Shown here piece by piece: positions 50 through 6,552 of a DNA stretch of 11,802 nt (position 1 is its first letter; every line of letters starts with the position of its first letter). This DNA is from a virus. Location of the stretch: UHGV virus genome UHGV-0166849, one strand, 5' to 3'. The translations under genes and the position numbers were made by a program. The notes beneath the pieces are model-generated. The model was not told the DNA's origin and made no database searches. It worked only from the letters and a program-made list of their open reading frames with translations.

Positions 50-2995
50 TTAGTGCTTCCCTTCTATTAAGTCTAACCTAGCTTTTATCTTATCCATTTC
101 TCTGCGCTGCCATGCTGCCTCGATATAGAATAAGAGATCAGGTCTGACCCCCCATCTAGATCCTGCTGGCGTTATTTCAACGCGCTCAATGATGTCTTCT
201 ATTACCATCACTGGATTATCATCCTCATCAACAATGATGCTCCCGTCATTATCAGTCAGCGGCATTTCCCTTTGGCCAGTAATGACGTCATCATATACTG
301 CGGGATAATCGTCATAGCAAAGAAAGGCATAGCGGCATGTTGTGCTTTCTTCTTCCATGAGTCCGTGAGAAATAAGAACATCACGAAGTTGCTGCGCGAT
401 TACACCATGATGTATCCTCGCCCCTTCTTCCCCCTTTATAGCGACAGCGTTCAGCCATTTATAAGCGATATACCTGACGTCACCCCAGGCATCCAGCAAT
501 GCTTCGTCAGGAGAGACCGGCTCTGTCTTTAATGTTCCGTCACTGGTAACCACAGGATTGGAGCCAAGATAAACTATCGAGAACCTGTTTCCCGGACCAC
601 CAAGAGCATTTACATTATCAAGATAAGGTTTAACATCTCCGTTCTCAAAAAGATGTTCGAGTGCGTTATATACCGCGCGACGTGGAGTACTGCTTCTGGA
701 ACCATGCAACGTTATCATTGCACCATCTGCTGAAGACGTTGTTTCACCGCCGCTAACGATTAATCTCTGAGCGGTAACATCATCAGACGGTACTTTCTTC
801 GCAATAATGGCGTAATTACCCTCAAGTTTGACTTCCGCGCGAACTTGTCCTGATGTACCTGCATGGACAGTCAGTGACTGGACGGCAACATCATCTGTGA
901 AATCAACGGGTACAGGAACCGTCCTCACGCCTGACGTCGACATAAAAGTAGGAAGCGTTCTGTTAGGAGTGGCTCCGTAGACAAAATCCCTTGAAACAAA
1001 TTCTTCCTGTTTAATTTTCACCCTGAAACAATACAAATCAGCCGGGTGACCATCGTGAACATAAGGATATTTTCTGTTGTTATCCCCTATGCTCCATGGG
1101 TTTAGAAAATCTTCCCCACCGAAAATGTAGTACAGCCAGTTGTCTTTGATACAAACTGAACCAACACCAACCGCAGAGTTAACTATTCCGCCCTGATAAA
1201 TCTGATCAGTAACATTAACCCACTCTACATTATCCAGACTCCACTCATTGACGTTAACTCTGGTCATAAATGTTCTTGGATAATTTCCTGCATAACGGTT
1301 ATCAGGTTCTCCTCCTTCCCACTCACCAAATGCGCGCTCACTGCCAAAAATAACCAGCTCATCGCCAACTTTGGCAAAAGGAAGGTTTGAGTGATGAACA
1401 TTATTTGGGAAGCGAAGAGAATTCCATGATGTACCTAAATCAGAGCTTCTGTGCAATGAACTACCGGGTTGAGTACTTAATGTCCCCCTGGTCGTCAGAT
1501 ACAGAATGCCATCATAATATTTTACACATGGCTCAGATGCATTCGCCTCATATTCTGCAGGTATGCGTCTGCGAACAAAGCTACCAGGAGAACCGAAAGC
1601 ATCAGAGAAATAGAGTATCCCAAGCTCGCGTGGACCAATATCACCATTATGGTAGCCAACAGCAAAACTGTTATCGCTAATCGTCGCAAAACTGTGAATC
1701 TCAGTAACAGGAGTGCTTCCGTCAACAAAAGAAGGAATAGTTCCAAGACTGGTTTTTCTCCATGGTGACGAGTGAAATGATGTGCCAAAACTCCAGTATC
1801 TACCCTCGTTATTCTGATCCACATCCTGGGTATTTTGCGTCGTAACTGTAAAGGTATTTTTATCAATAACAGTAGTCACCGTCATATTCCCGGTAACATC
1901 TGTAACACCAGAGTTTGAGAAGTTGACAAAATCACCAGCAAATAATCCGTGATCAGTAATGCGAATATAAGCGACTTGCTGATTTGCTGCTTTCGTTATA
2001 CCACCATAAACGCGAAGGCTGCGACTCATTGGGCGATCCCACAACTCTGCAACCTGCAGTTTATTTCCTCTCACGGTCCGCGTCTCAATTACAGCAAAAA
2101 GGCGATTTCTGACAACCCCCATACTCATGCAGTGATAGTTAACTGTGGGATAGTTTTCATGTAAATCTGTAAGCCATTCCGGCGTTGTCCAGGTCTTCCC
2201 GTCATCTCCTGAGCGAACCCATGCAACATGGAGGTTATTTACACCATGGCGGTCTCCAGCCATAAAAGGCGCATAGATGACATTGTCATATACAAACGTT
2301 TTATCCTGCGTCCAGGCGTTGTACCACGGTGTATCTGTAATTTTAAATAACTCTCCCTGGATAAAATCTTCAGAAGCATAAAAAAGAGGCTGACCCGGTA
2401 TTCTCTCAAATAAAAAACGAGCATTTTTAAATCGACTGACATCTGGAAGAGTTGATACTTTAAAAGTAAGCCCTCGCCCATCTATCTTTTCACCACCTGT
2501 TGCAACAGAAAGTAATTCTGATAGAGCTGATGTATCATCATGAACACCATCACCAATAGCCCCCCAACCTCTTACATCATAACTGTCTCTCCATCTTGCT
2601 ATCTGAAGTTTTGGGTATTTATTCGCTCCATCTGGGTCTTCTAATTGCCGCCGTAACTGATCAGGATCATACTTCAGCACATTAGGAAAATAAAACTGCT
2701 GTGAACCATATGCATCGTACACAGCCATAGAGTGACCTTGCACAGTTACGAACTTGGCAATCTGTCCGTTATATACCGGATATCCAGCAGCGTTAATGAT
2801 GATTGGTTGCGAAACAGGAACGTGAGAGCCGTCTTCGTTCTCCACATAAGCCTGAATCTGGTTTTCAGGATTTACCGGGTCAGTGTCAATTTTACCGATA
2901 TAAATTTTGCCATTGGCTACAGCTTTAAAAGAACGCGCCATAGTGAAGAGTTGCGAAGGCATGCTGACCACAACATTTGCGGTGATATCTGTCAT
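50..2995 (-). CDS. Tailspike protein (981 aa): P22 gp9-type head-binding N-domain + sialidase-like domain with Asp-boxes + C-terminal intramolecular chaperone-like domain; probable endo-N-acetylneuraminidase (endosialidase)
   Basis: Full-length ORF in track. N-terminus [11 protein letters not shown]...[22 protein letters not shown]...ENEDGSHV...NVLKYDPDQ closely matches my memory of the P22 tailspike head-binding domain. Two Asp-box motifs are read directly: SGDDGKTW (aa 262-269, nt ~2189-2212) and SSDLGTSW (aa 517-524, nt ~1424-1447). The C-terminal ~160 aa (motifs [25 protein letters not shown]) resemble endosialidase/tail-fibre C-terminal chaperone domains. SD GGAG lies 8 nt upstream of the ATG at 2995. 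Confidence 0.85.
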
Positions 2996-3051
2996 TTAAT
3001 TTGCTCCAGATACAAGGAATCGCCGCAGCGTGGCTACGGTGAATTTTGGGC

Positions 3052-3079
3052 ATAAAAAAACCCAGCCGAAGCTGGGTCG
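3052..3079 (-). terminator. Rho-independent terminator between ant and the tailspike gene (t_ant-like)
   Basis: On the + strand: A7 run (3054-3060), then a 7-bp stem ACCCAGC/GCTGGGT with loop CGAA (3060-3077). Read on the minus strand this is a hairpin followed by a U7 run, 19 nt downstream of the ant stop. Confidence 0.6.
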
Positions 3080-3095: not shown

Positions 3096-4019
3096 TCAGT
3101 AGTTATGTACTGAAGGAGGTAATTCTTTGTTCTTAAGTCTTATCCATGCTGAAAGGTTTGTTGGTCCGTCTGGCTCATTAATATCAACATCTCGTGTATG
3201 GTTGATTAAAACATCTCTCGCCATTCCGATAACATACGAGAACTCATAACCGCAGTCATGACATCTGCCGGAATAGTTCGATTGAATTTGTTTCAGCGCC
3301 GGATACAGTTCGCGGAATAATGCCTGTGAGCGGTTGGCATAATCCCATAGCCATACAAGGCTGTTTGCTTCTTTTGCAGAAAGCTCGTTGGTTTTCTTCT
3401 CTTGTTTGCCAATGAACTCACCTTCAAGTGGAACTCGAGCTGCAAGTGATAGTGCTTCGGTAAACTGCTCCTCACTGATTTCTTTGTACGAACATCCAAA
3501 ATGGGATTTCAGTGACGACCACATGGTGATCATCGCCTTAGCCCGTTTTTCTTTTGGCAGAGACTGACCGCGACTCATGACGAGTTGTTTAATGGCTTCC
3601 TGCTGTTCAGTGGTGATTTTACCCGGCAACGCCTTTTTAGCTTTGCGTGGGTTAACTACATAGCCTTTAGTCCAGTACTCGTAGAGCACATCGTCACACT
3701 CTTCCTGATACTGGATTACCTTGTCGCGGATTTCAGGGCGGACTTTGTTTGGCTGAATGCTTGAAAGCCAAGCCGCAAACTTACGAAAGGCAAGGCATAT
3801 CATTAACTGTTTACCGCCAGCAGAAGGTATTTCGATTTCCGAAATACCTTTGACAAATCTCTGTTTTAATTTAACAAATTGAGCAGCCCAAACCATACCC
3901 ATGCCTTCTACAACGGGTTTCATAGGAACGTAAGGTTCATTGTTAATGCTGACCAAAAAGAGATTTGTTCCGTGGAATGGAACGTTGATTGTATGTTCTG
4001 CAATTGCTACACTCGTCAT
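3096..4019 (-). CDS. ant: Antirepressor Ant (307 aa), AntA/Bro-N-like N-terminal domain
   Basis: ORF in track. Sits downstream of arc and upstream of the tailspike, as in P22 immI. N-terminal region (..VPFHGTNLFLV...PMKPVVEGMGMVWAAQ..KL) looks like phage antirepressor N-domains. SD AGGA ~8 nt upstream of the ATG at 4019. Confidence 0.75.
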   Translation of the reverse strand: MTSVAIAEHTINVPFHGTNLFLVSINNEPYVPMKPVVEGMGMVWAAQFVKLKQRFVKGISEIEIPSAGGKQLMICLAFRKFAAWLSSIQPNKVRPEIRDKVIQYQEECDDVLYEYWTKGYVVNPRKAKKALPGKITTEQQEAIKQLVMSRGQSLPKEKRAKAMITMWSSLKSHFGCSYKEISEEQFTEALSLAARVPLEGEFIGKQEKKTNELSAKEANSLVWLWDYANRSQALFRELYPALKQIQSNYSGRCHDCGYEFSYVIGMARDVLINHTRDVDINEPDGPTNLSAWIRLKNKELPPSVHNY

Positions 4020-4090
4020 GTCGTTAATTCCTATGCGTGGTTTTACGATACCGAAGCCCTGACTGTTCCCGCAGTTGGGGCTTCACTGTT
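4020..4090 (+). ncRNA. Candidate sar-like antisense RNA (~70 nt) complementary to the ant RBS and start region
   Basis: Plus-strand promoter-like hexamers inside the 5' end of ant: TTGATT (3985-3990), 17-bp spacer, TACACT (4008-4013), placing a start near 4020. Downstream is an imperfect hairpin GAAGCCC...GGGCTTC (about 4051-4081) followed by TTTTT (4085-4089). This matches the known P22 arrangement of sar RNA opposite the ant RBS. Prediction from sequence only. Confidence 0.3.
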
Positions 4091-4304
4091 TTTGTAAGTC
4101 ACTGTAGCTATAAAGCCACTGACCACTCATTTTTGATTTGATTGACTCTACTGAATCACGGCAAGGAATGATTCCACCTGACATCATTCTGATCTCCGTA
4201 AATTCACCACTCCTTATCGATTCAATGCCATCAATGTTAACTAAAGATTTACCTCTACCAAGTGCATTCTCATAGCCAATCTCATCAACCTCAATAAACT
4301 TCAT
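4083..4304 (-). CDS. Hypothetical protein (73 aa) located between arc and ant
   Basis: ORF in track. Its ATG overlaps the arc stop codon (ATGA at 4301-4304, minus strand), which suggests translational coupling. SD-like GAGGGGA upstream. No recognisable motif. As I recall P22 immI, there is no gene between arc and ant. Confidence 0.45.
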   Translation of the reverse strand: MKFIEVDEIGYENALGRGKSLVNIDGIESIRSGEFTEIRMMSGGIIPCRDSVESIKSKMSGQWLYSYSDLQKQ

Positions 4305-4459
4305 ACCGTTATCCCCTCTCTCTTCAGGCTGTCCAACACTCGCTTGTAAATCTCAGAGTTAACAGATCGCCCGTTCTCTTCAGCTACCTTGCGCACCAAA
4401 TCCAATACTTCTTTAGGCCACCGCAAATTGAACTGCGGCATTTTTCTTGCACCTTGCAT
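4301..4459 (-). CDS. arc: Arc transcriptional repressor (52 aa, ribbon-helix-helix)
   Basis: Not in the ORF track (below its size cutoff). Manual translation of the minus strand gives MQGARKMPQFNLRWPKEVLDLVRKVAEENGRSVNSEIYKRVLDSLKREGITV, near-identical in its first 40 residues to P22 Arc as I recall it (MKGMSKMPQFNLRWPREVLDLVRKVAEENGRSVNSEIYQRV...). SD AGGGGA upstream of the ATG at 4459. Confidence 0.85.
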   Translation of the reverse strand: MQGARKMPQFNLRWPKEVLDLVRKVAEENGRSVNSEIYKRVLDSLKREGITV

Positions 4460-4481
4460 GTCATCCCCTTTGTGGTATTAC

Positions 4482-4508
4482 CGTACTACTATTGAAAGCG
4501 TACTACTA
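4482..4508. repeat. Two copies of a 10-bp direct repeat CGTACTACTA (4482-4491 and 4499-4508) flanking TTGAAAG; candidate operator for Arc and/or Mnt
   Basis: Read directly from the sequence. The repeats overlap the predicted P_ant -10 and transcription start region and flank the P_mnt -35. The TAGTAG core on the opposite strand is reminiscent of the P22 arc operator half-sites. Confidence 0.4.
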
Positions 4509-4520
4509 CCGTCCTAGCAT
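4492..4520 (+). promoter_or_regulatory. Candidate P_mnt promoter, overlapping back-to-back with P_ant
   Basis: On the plus strand: -35 TTGAAA (4492-4497), 17-bp spacer, -10 TAGCAT (4515-4520). Followed by SD AAGGAG (4533-4538) and the GTG start of mnt at 4545. Confidence 0.4.
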
Positions 4521-4525
4521 GTCAA
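4497..4525 (-). promoter_or_regulatory. Candidate P_ant promoter (drives arc, orf73, ant)
   Basis: On the minus strand: perfect -35 TTGACA (4525-4520), 17-bp spacer, weak -10 TACGCT (4502-4497). Lies in the divergent arc/mnt intergenic region, as in P22. Confidence 0.45.
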
Positions 4526-4544
4526 CAAATAAAAGGAGAATGAC

Positions 4545-4787
4545 GTGGCTAGAAATGATCCGCAATTCAACGTAAGAATGCCAGATGAGATAAAACAGCA
4601 ACTTACGCATATTGCTGCAACAAATCGTCGCTCTATCAATGCTGAAATTATTGCCGCTATCCAATTGTGGATAAAGATACATAAAGAGCAGGTAATACCT
4701 TCAAGTAGTCAGCAACTGACCAAGTCAGAGAAAGAGGCTCTTGATGTGACTATTGATGTTCTACAACGTGTAAGGGATGGGAAATGA
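4545..4787 (+). CDS. mnt: Mnt repressor (80 aa, ribbon-helix-helix, Arc/Mnt family)
   Basis: ORF in track with GTG start. N-terminus MARNDPQFNVRMP...RRSINAEI matches P22 Mnt as I recall it (MARDDPHFNFRMP...GRSMNSEL). Divergent from arc, with a strong SD AAGGAG 6 nt upstream. Confidence 0.85.
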   Translation: MARNDPQFNVRMPDEIKQQLTHIAATNRRSINAEIIAAIQLWIKIHKEQVIPSSSQQLTKSEKEALDVTIDVLQRVRDGK

Positions 4788-5056
4788 AACCAACGAACAA
4801 AGAAATTTTCGAGCAAATAAAAGTACTTCCTTTCACTATTGAGCTTGCAAAGAGATATGAAGCTTATTATCCGTTTACCGAAGAGTCGATACGGATAGAG
4901 ACATATGATGAGTTTGGTCAGTGCTCTATCTGGCTTGGCTTTGAAGACCAATTTGCTATACGTGATGCTTTTGGAAATTGGAGAATGGCTACAGCTGAAG
5001 AATGTATTGATCTCAGAGGTGGCAACCTTCCAGGTTCAATGACATTAGTTAATTAA
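4784..5056 (+). CDS. Hypothetical acidic protein (90 aa), translationally coupled to mnt
   Basis: ORF in track. Its ATG overlaps the mnt stop (ATGA at 4784-4787). Net acidic (15 D+E versus 9 K+R). No recognisable motif. Confidence 0.55.
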   Translation: MKPTNKEIFEQIKVLPFTIELAKRYEAYYPFTEESIRIETYDEFGQCSIWLGFEDQFAIRDAFGNWRMATAEECIDLRGGNLPGSMTLVN

Positions 5057-5080
5057 CGGCGTACATGGCAGGTATGTAAA

Positions 5081-5266
5081 ATGAATAATAAACCAATGTC
5101 TAACGAAGAGTTGCAGCGCGAGTTAAAGAAACTTCATAAACTGGTATCACTTATCTACTCCAAGTTGCCACCAGATGCTCGACAAGCTGTTTTTGATGAA
5201 CTAACAAGAAGCGGAGATAGGGATGATCTGGATACTGCTTCTCGTATCAATAGCTACCGTTTTTAA
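5081..5266 (+). CDS. Hypothetical protein (61 aa)
   Basis: ORF in track. Weak SD (AGGT) 7 nt upstream. Its last 20 nt overlap a convergent minus-strand small ORF. Coding status uncertain. Confidence 0.35.
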   Translation: MNNKPMSNEELQRELKKLHKLVSLIYSKLPPDARQAVFDELTRSGDRDDLDTASRINSYRF

Positions 5267-5426
5267 TAGCCTCCAGAGTCGAATCGTAACGACTGCGCAT
5301 TGATTTTGCTGATTTCTCAAGCTCTTCTGCTTGATGCTTCAGTGATTCAAGATGAAGCTCTCCAAGATGGCACTTCATCACTTTGATGGTGCGTTCAAGG
5401 TTTTCCACACGTTCTTCTATGGTCAT
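5247..5426 (-). CDS. Hypothetical protein (59 aa), helical and charged; not in the ORF track
   Basis: Manual translation gives MTIEERVENLERTIKVMKCHLGELHLESLKHQAEELEKSAKSMRSRYDSTLEAIKNGSY. Strong SD AAGGA 6 nt upstream of the ATG at 5426. No obvious promoter between it and the upstream terminator, so expression is uncertain. Confidence 0.35.
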   Translation of the reverse strand: MTIEERVENLERTIKVMKCHLGELHLESLKHQAEELEKSAKSMRSRYDSTLEAIKNGSY

Positions 5427-5458
5427 GGTATTTCCTTAATCTTTAAAGTAGAGAAGAT

Positions 5459-5490
5459 AAAAAAACCCACCTGACGGTGGGTTAATTTTT
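5459..5490. terminator. Bidirectional rho-independent terminator
   Basis: A-run (5459-5465), perfect 8-bp stem AACCCACC/GGTGGGTT with loop TGAC (5464-5483), then AATTTTT (5484-5490). The A-run on one side and T-run on the other allow termination in both directions. Confidence 0.65.
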
Positions 5491-5508
5491 GCATTTACCT
5501 GGGCCATA

Positions 5509-5537
5509 TTGACTACTCATAAAATGAGATCAATATT
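5509..5537 (+). promoter_or_regulatory. Candidate sigma70 promoter for the small gene at 5574, with an inverted repeat in the spacer
   Basis: -35 TTGACT (5509-5514), 17-bp spacer, -10 AATATT (5532-5537). The spacer contains the inverted repeat CTCAT-AAAA-TGAG (5517-5529), a possible operator. Confidence 0.35.
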
Positions 5538-5573
5538 TAATCGCCCAATAACGGGTGTATGTTGAGGTATATC

Positions 5574-5753
5574 ATGGCGAAAAAACCAGGTGAAAACACA
5601 GGAAAAAACGGCGGAATATACCAAGAAGTTGGCCCACGCGGCGGTAAGAAAGACAATTTTGCAACCGTCAAGGACAACGAAAGGCTTCCACCAACAACAA
5701 AGCCAGGTCATGGCTGGGTATTGGATAAGCGAACTCCAGACAGCAAAAAGTAA
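5574..5753 (+). CDS. Hypothetical small basic protein (59 aa; alternative start at 5559 gives 64 aa)
   Basis: ORF in track. SD GAGG (5564-5567) 6 nt upstream of the ATG at 5574. Gly/Lys/Pro-rich sequence MAKKPGENTGKNGGIYQEVGPRGGKK...LPPTTKPGHGWVLD. I have a vague sense this resembles a conserved small-protein family but cannot name it. Confidence 0.55.
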   Translation: MAKKPGENTGKNGGIYQEVGPRGGKKDNFATVKDNERLPPTTKPGHGWVLDKRTPDSKK

Positions 5754-5766
5754 TACTCAAGCCGGG

Positions 5767-6132
5767 TCACTCCGGCTTTTTGATATGTCGCTCGCAGAAC
5801 TCAACAAGCCTGCTCATTAAGTAGCAGTAAGTCTCATTGGCTCTTCCTGGTTCAACATCAACACCGACCCTTGAGCAGATATCGAATGCCATGTGAGCGC
5901 ACTCATGGGCAATAGTAGATAGTTTGCCATTGAACACGCCTATCACATGCAAAACACCATTCTCGCTGCTCATTGTATGAGACGCTCCGTTGGCGTCCGA
6001 GTCATGCACGTCAACGCCAAGTTTTTGATGCAGGCGTTGCCATTCTGGAAAGTCTCTACAAAACACAATTGTACCGCTCTCAAAGAGCGGAACGAGCATC
6101 TTTGGTACGTTTCCAATGTTAACTTTTTTCAT
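5767..6132 (-). CDS. Hypothetical HExxH-motif protein (121 aa); candidate mini zinc-metallopeptidase
   Basis: ORF in track starts at a TTG at 6171. I prefer the first ATG at 6132, which has SD AGGA ~5 nt upstream. Contains HECAH (aa 76-80) with Glu residues 14 and 20 aa downstream, consistent with a zincin HExxH...E arrangement. The overlapping plus-strand translation looks non-protein-like. Confidence 0.55.
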   Translation of the reverse strand: MKKVNIGNVPKMLVPLFESGTIVFCRDFPEWQRLHQKLGVDVHDSDANGASHTMSSENGVLHVIGVFNGKLSTIAHECAHMAFDICSRVGVDVEPGRANETYCYLMSRLVEFCERHIKKPE

Positions 6133-6162
6133 GGTATCCTGCTCAAAACTAAGGAGCTTGGT

Positions 6163-6552
6163 GTGAAGCAATTTCTTGCTGCTATGTTCTTATTCATATC
6201 TTTTGGGGCTACAGCAGAGTGCTGGGTCGTTGGAGATATGCGCGGAATAAGCTATTCAGAACGAAATAATTTCCATCCGGAAGAAGATGGTTTTAGTGGA
6301 ACATTCATCATTAAGACAAGCGGTGAAGATGCCAGCATCACATATTCTGGGACAGATGCGGGCGGCATGGCTTACAAAGCATTGTCTAAAAACTCCATCA
6401 TAGGAATCGGCGCGAATGGCGAAACTCAACGCGTTATCGACTCATGGGTAATACATCCTACTGGAACAGTTTTAATGTCAAAAACCATTTCTGGTTATGG
6501 GAATATGGATTCAACCAAAGCTTTTGTTGGAAAAGTAAAAAGAAAATGTTAA
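6163..6552 (+). CDS. Hypothetical secreted/periplasmic protein (129-aa precursor) with Sec signal peptide
   Basis: Start re-called to the GTG at 6163, with SD AAGGAG (6151-6156) 6 nt upstream. N-terminus MKQFLAAMFLFISFGATA|ECW has an n-h-c signal-peptide layout with an A-x-A cleavage site. The predicted mature protein has one Cys at residue 2 and one as the C-terminal residue. No lipobox. Opposite orientation to the late operon, at the position P22 uses for sieA. Confidence 0.6.
   Translation: MKQFLAAMFLFISFGATAECWVVGDMRGISYSERNNFHPEEDGFSGTFIIKTSGEDASITYSGTDAGGMAYKALSKNSIIGIGANGETQRVIDSWVIHPTGTVLMSKTISGYGNMDSTKAFVGKVKRKC

Follow-up and report, generated by a model that had tools for sequence, protein, structure and literature searches.

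A tailspike in which a P22-type anchor is very likely joined directly after KYDPDQ to a complete K1 endosialidase module

Where the P22-type part of the tailspike encoded by the virus genome UHGV-0166849 ends, what stands behind it and how the two parts came to be joined are the questions raised by this locus. The gene lies on the minus strand at positions 50..2995 of the window, i.e., the whole stretch of 11,802 nucleotides that was analysed, and encodes 981 residues and a stop according to the open-reading-frame list and the translation. It combines a P22-type head-binding domain with a K1 endosialidase of the CUS-3 siaK1 type (98.4% nucleotide identity to siaK1, CP000711.1). A sequence-only reading had placed a module junction at the hexapeptide KYDPDQ, where similarity to P22 gp9 was said to stop and recombination probably to have switched the host receptor. 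Its coordinates and residue numbers are exact: KYDPDQ corresponds to residues 108–113, encoded on the minus strand at 2657..2674 (coding strand AAGTATGATCCTGATCAG), and the junction lies between positions 2657 and 2656. The explanation that we consider very probable is that a P22-type anchor has been joined directly after KYDPDQ to a complete endosialidase module, a type of junction that is already known from CUS-3.

The head-binding (virion attachment) domain comprises residues 1–113 (2657..2995, minus strand), and the Pfam family PF09008 (Head_binding) covers exactly these residues with profile positions 1–113 of 113 (E 3e-66; 221 bits vs a cut-off of 24). Structural matches to PDB entries 1LKT, 2VKY and 7SG7 agree with this assignment, and in the comparison of PDB chains the head-binding structures of P22 and Sf6 match the tailspike from residue 1 to only about residue 118. 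When the protein was split for BLASTP, residues 1–113 matched only P22-like tailspikes, at 77–97% identity (77% for P22 gp9, 93% for Sf6 and 96% for HK620), and residues 114–981 had no detectable similarity to the P22, Sf6 and HK620 tailspikes (best E 1.3, 3.3 and 0.27, respectively, with the P22 residues after DPDQ used in the P22 comparison). Similarity to P22 gp9 extending well past residue ~120, which would have spoken against the earlier claim, was looked for and was not found. The mechanical list of open reading frames also holds a 107-codon, GTG-initiated frame at 2732–3055 on the plus strand, antisense to the head-binding domain, which we take to be spurious.

The nucleotide comparisons place the end of similarity at the same point. 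The KYDPDQ codons end at gene nucleotide 339, and the similarity of most relatives ends at nucleotides 338–345: blastn alignments stop at 338 for P22, at 341 for Sf6 and IME10, and at 339–343 for many others, with HK620 (354) and 611R6 (357) ending further on. The maximum-likelihood change point is nucleotide 341 for P22, Sf6 and HK620 alike, with log-likelihood gains of 21–87, and in a megablast search with the whole window the alignments to Emek, S.Kent 1-2-1, EC.P3 and E212 end exactly at window position 2657. A nucleotide breakpoint is thus present near 2650–2680, where it had been expected. Among 60 evenly spaced records out of 1158 matching E. coli records, 40 have alignments that end at gene nucleotides 334–346. 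The nonapeptide NVLKYDPDQ is invariant in 15 P22-like tailspikes (P22, Sf6, HK620 and 12 others, from phages of Escherichia, Shigella, Salmonella and Proteus), after which the proteins diverge into many unrelated modules; a motif following the junction, L/F-R/K-x-x-L...G-A, is common to many of the P22-like receptor modules. The coincidence of break points at KYDPDQ is far beyond chance.

The other flank is equally well defined. Residues 114–981 match only endosialidases in the split BLASTP search, and the alignments with the endosialidases of K1F (T7-like), phi92 (a myovirus), K1G and IME207 (both siphoviruses) all start exactly at residue 114 and reach the C-terminus at 55–62% identity. The counterpart of residue 114 is residue 214 in K1F, 126 in IME207, 135 in K1G and 44 in phi92, and upstream of this point the four endosialidases carry attachment domains of their own. 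At the nucleotide level, the 37 codons for residues 114–150 are 57–65% identical to the four endosialidase genes, whereas the preceding 30 nucleotides are at background (20–33%). Since P22-type homology stops at residue 113 and endosialidase homology starts at residue 114, the junction is two-sided and sharp, and the claim that the head-binding domain was kept while the receptor module was exchanged is borne out on both sides.

The part that follows the junction is a complete endosialidase. It begins with a neck, residues 114–145 (2561..2656), whose alignment with the endosialidases of K1F, IME207, K1G and phi92 starts at its very first residue, followed by the endosialidase N-terminal extension domain (End_N_terminal), residues 146–212 (2360..2560; PF12218, E 8e-37), where the EndoNF crystal chains start. 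The catalytic six-bladed β-propeller, residues 213–662 (1010..2359), is assigned from PF12217 (E 1e-232) and PDB 1V0E/3GVL (E = 0), and contains an inserted β-barrel, residues 324–406 (1778–2026; PF12195). It is succeeded by the stalk (tail-spike domain), residues 663–817 (545..1009; PF12219, E 7e-78), and by a C-terminal intramolecular chaperone of the peptidase S74 type, residues 818–981 (53..544); all of these segments are encoded on the minus strand. PF12218, PF12217, PF12195 and PF12219 are all matched over their full length, i.e., the entire domain set of a GH58 endosialidase is present. Among PDB chains, endoNF of K1F (1V0E, 3GVL) matches residues 145–817 with E = 0, and 3GW6, the C-terminal chaperone of endoNF, matches residues 698–979. 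PF13884 (Peptidase_S74) spans residues 818–878, and the assignment of the chaperone agrees with the mat_peptide annotation of K1F. The catalytic residues of endoNF, which we take to be Glu581, Arg596 and Arg647 (and His350), are conserved in the alignment with K1F as E488, R503, R554 and H250. Ser818 and Lys823 align with Ser911 and Lys916 of K1F, so that the Ser/Lys autocleavage site is conserved as well and release of the chaperone by cleavage at Ser818 is predicted.

Receptor-binding domains do evolve fast, and one might suppose that the part after residue 113 diverged rapidly from a P22-like ancestor under selection on host range, with no recombination involved. The domain set, however, is that of a GH58 β-propeller and not of a P22-type β-helix, the C-terminal part retains the identity given above to endosialidases of T7-like phages, siphoviruses and myoviruses and is 99.5% identical in nucleotides to a Uetakevirus cassette, and nothing detectable in residues 114–981 recalls P22, Sf6 or HK620. 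We regard rapid divergence as refuted by these matches and by the absent similarity, and assign it practically no probability.

Every sequence-level comparison that was made assigns the tailspike to the families concerned (head-binding domains, GH58 endosialidases and S74 chaperones), and its enzyme activity, cleavage and attachment to the virion are inferred from these assignments. Cleavage of α-2,8-polysialic acid carries GO evidence code IDA (PMID 16689790) in the GenBank record of the 98.5% identical CUS-3 protein. The genomic setting is that of a P22-like virion: with the module order gp26, gp14, gp7, gp20, gp16, ant region and tailspike as reference, matches to ejection-protein and Ant PHROGs were found, and the region is collinear with CUS-3, HK620 and 611R6. 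The antirepressor gene ant (3096..4019, minus strand; PHROG 245, E 1e-94) is the upstream neighbour of the tailspike gene, an arrangement also seen in P22 and CUS-3. A terminator-like hairpin with a T run behind it (3059..3078, minus strand) separates ant from the start of the tailspike gene, at the position of P22 t_ant; a terminator is annotated at the same position in P22 and epsilon34. The hairpin falls in the interval labelled ‘bsq1 boundary sequence’ in CUS-3, which was considered as the internal junction and rejected, as bsq1 is the intergenic region between ant and the tailspike gene and not the KYDPDQ site. Further upstream, the stretch between gp16 and ant (4083–6552, the ‘ant moron’ region) is mosaic and holds an Arc/Mnt-like gene (4545–4787, plus strand), small genes that match PHROGs 11805, 16466 and 1365, a match to PHROG 2651 at ~6202–6552, and a bidirectional terminator-like hairpin at 5464–5483. 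Among complete E. coli genomes and phage records, none covers at least 80% of the window in one place.

In the mechanism that we propose, the head-binding domain, whose last six residues are KYDPDQ, would attach the spike, a trimer, to the tail hub of P22-like (Lederbergvirus) virions; KYDPDQ is sited in the flexible linker, or hinge, between the domains. In Sf6, the rigid core, residues 17–106, is connected to the spike body by a linker or hinge, residues 107–123 (PMC9728967). The module from residue 114 onwards comprises the neck, the N-terminal extension, the β-propeller with its β-barrel, the stalk and the C-terminal chaperone, which is predicted to cleave itself off; once imported, it would provide recognition and depolymerization of the K1 capsule along with a folding chaperone of its own. 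With a P22-type anchor in front of an endosialidase module, P22-type attachment would therefore be kept and K1 polysialic acid targeted instead of O-antigen. The chimera probably arose by recombination, and the boundary may be identical across P22-like tailspikes because only in-frame fusions at the hinge both assemble and fold. Present-day exchange among P22-like phages would proceed by ordinary homologous recombination within the ~340-nucleotide anchor and its upstream flank, and a dedicated DNA signal would play no part in it.

The sharing of one break position by many phages could also be read as the mark of such a signal, with the KYDPDQ-coding DNA acting as a dedicated recombination hotspot or as a boundary sequence conserved at the DNA level, and DNA motifs at the anchor end have indeed been proposed for lytic phage genera (PMC10408124). 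According to the same study, these junction motifs are conserved in lytic genera but absent from Lederbergvirus (PMC10408124). In our data, synonymous diversity in codons 102–113 is the same as in codons 1–101, i.e., 0.40 vs 0.39 among the 15 phages and 0.24 vs 0.26 in the E. coli/Shigella subset, and other break points exist at gene nucleotides 354–360, 405–467 and 522. Synonymous diversity at the junction is thus ordinary, so KYDPDQ is conserved as protein only and not as a DNA signal, and the boundary is set by protein architecture, the hinge, rather than by a DNA hotspot. A hotspot at the DNA level was accordingly rejected on the ground that diversity equals that of the rest of the anchor, and we consider it very unlikely. 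A full-text literature search for the motif YDPDQ gave nothing relevant.

The junction at KYDPDQ is not the sole exchange point; exchange has also occurred near residue 150 and at codon 174. The tailspike genes of Gally and 683R2 share nucleotides 1–449 with the present gene at 87% identity and have an unrelated C-terminal part. The Gally neck, corresponding to residues 114–150 (window 2547–2656; L005 2840–2949), is 81% identical in amino acids and 76% in nucleotides, and occurs in 683R2 as well. The C-terminal part of Gally has no endosialidase Pfam domains, and the remaining ~650 residues of the Gally and 683R2 proteins have no Pfam or PDB match except for a short match of the neck to 9VVR. 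The end of the Gally-type neck near a GDG motif looks like a second-tier module junction. Among the sampled E. coli prophage tailspikes, ~10% match past KYDPDQ to nucleotides 405–467.

The innermost exchange point is defined by a cassette (82..2474, minus strand; gene nucleotides 522–2914) that is common with the Uetakevirus (epsilon15-like) vB_EcoP_ZX5 at 99.5% nucleotide identity. Both of its ends are sharp: identity is 98.7–99.6% inside but falls to 48–57% immediately upstream and to 34% downstream. The pattern points to a very recent passage of the catalytic cassette between two temperate podovirus genera. The stretch 82–2474 is likewise 99.5% identical in nucleotides to Phi05_2388 B and Phi05_1999 B.

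These inner break points bear on a different history, in which the catalytic part entered downstream, at about residue 150 or codon 174, within a Gally-like neck that was already in place, and KYDPDQ marks a junction inherited from earlier, the receptor switch having taken place elsewhere. The neck is also found on the non-endosialidase Gally tailspike, the motif that follows the junction recurs in many P22-like receptor modules, and a break at codon 174 does occur in ZX5; the catalytic part could therefore have entered downstream. The neck is, however, collinear with the necks of K1F, IME207, K1G and phi92 from its first residue, and at ~73% amino-acid identity to IME207 it is no less conserved than the rest of the module (62%), which gives neck and catalytic part the appearance of a single unit. 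Equally, the Gally type may descend from a CUS-3-like gene whose catalytic part was replaced. We consider entry downstream of the neck improbable, and retain the reading in which the complete module, neck included, was joined to the anchor at 113|114.

The neck is common to endosialidases on five virion types and to P22-like tailspikes of the Gally type with unrelated catalytic parts. We put forward, tentatively and as somewhat doubtful, that these ~37 residues (114–150) are themselves an exchangeable coupling segment, with nested exchange points at 113|114, about residue 150 and codon 174. If the neck is exchangeable, receptor switching uses nested exchange points and not one junction, and the 99.5% identity of the Uetakevirus cassette would mean that such inner exchanges happened recently and between genera.

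The historical crossover that made the chimera is not assignable to the 18 bases of KYDPDQ, which constitute the module boundary. Microhomology between the P22-type sequence and the endosialidase donors at the junction amounts to an uninformative coincidence of GAT...TTA in a setting of 20–33% identity upstream. No present-day donor that closely matches the neck in nucleotide sequence came to light; outside the P22-like phages, the best neck is 65% identical. The proposal that this is the probable recombination point that switched the host receptor is supported as to the module junction and the switch to the K1 capsule; the crossover itself is not pinned to these bases, and inner exchange points exist.

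Judged from the alleles compared, exchange at the KYDPDQ boundary continues today. Of the 48 nucleotide differences from CUS-3, 32 fall in gene nucleotides 1–303 (window 2693–2995; binomial 3e-19). Next to VR50, the closest anchor alleles (95.9%) are found in prophage tailspikes of E. coli O104:H4, where the match stops at nucleotide 346, so these carry a different receptor module that lacks the endosialidase part. Identity to CUS-3 (L001) is ~90% in the head-binding part and in the ant region upstream of it, and ~99.5% in the endosialidase part; the same receptor module is therefore present on different P22-like backbones. The closest allele of the entire tailspike gene is that of E. coli VR50 (L012, NZ_CP011134.1 1122226–1125171; 99.4%), where the phage genes end with it and torT follows; this prophage differs in the ant region. 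In CUS-3, neuO and int come after the tailspike gene, and attL is located where the record begins. P22-like prophages with the endosialidase tailspike are therefore integrated at more than one site. The gene is present at full length in 181 of 5426 complete E. coli genomes.

The locus is a clear and well-documented case of receptor change in temperate P22-like phages, with the K1 capsule of invasive E. coli taking the place of O-antigen; the small attachment domain was retained and the enzyme behind it swapped. The exact boundary at 113|114 should be useful for the engineering of chimeric tailspikes and for the annotation of prophage host range. What is added to existing knowledge is that the boundary is fixed from two sides at one residue and that a hotspot at the DNA level is absent, together with the exchange of anchor alleles relative to CUS-3 and the nested inner break points at about residue 150 and codon 174.

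The CUS-3 endosialidase tailspike has reportedly been treated by Stummeyer et al. 2006 and King et al. 2007. Its siaK1 gene (ABQ88383.1) is the same gene as the one analysed here, with 981 residues, 98.4% nucleotide and 98.5% amino-acid identity, the same junction and ant upstream. Differences from CUS-3 are that the anchor is another allele (90.6% nucleotide identity, vs ~99.5% for the rest), that only 58% of the window is covered, and that the ‘ant moron’ region, further upstream, has a mosaic make-up. The combination of an N-terminus common to P22, Sf6 and HK620 with a K1F-type endosialidase has made the CUS-3 tailspike a standard example of module exchange (PMC5380687), and its chimeric build is credited to Stummeyer et al. 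2006, as cited in PMC5380687. For P22-like tailspikes in general, amino acids 1–115 of the head-binding domain are described as conserved and the remainder as unrelated (PMC2629481).

P22 gp9, Sf6 gp14 and HK620 gp9 share residues 1–113 with the invariant NVLKYDPDQ, and their genes have the same place in the genome, following those for the ejection proteins and the ant region. Their receptor parts, however, are β-helix O-antigen endoglycosidases without detectable similarity to residues 114–981. With K1F gp17 (endoNF; 1V0E, 3GVL, 3GW6) the relationship is the reverse: the proteins are collinear from neck through chaperone, with 62% identity from K1F residue 214 on and with catalytic and cleavage residues conserved, but K1F attachment uses a T7 tail-fibre N-domain (Phage_T7_tail) and Tail_spike_N, residues 1–213, and not a P22 head-binding domain. 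The ZX5 endosialidase tail fibre, in turn, has an epsilon15-type N-terminal anchor, and its junction is at codon 174, inside End_N_terminal, rather than at KYDPDQ; the common cassette covers codons 174–971, and the last 11 codons differ. K1 phages of the T7-like, siphovirus, myovirus and epsilon15-like types thus carry the same endosialidase module behind very different attachment domains, and in the present tailspike it sits behind one of the P22 type.
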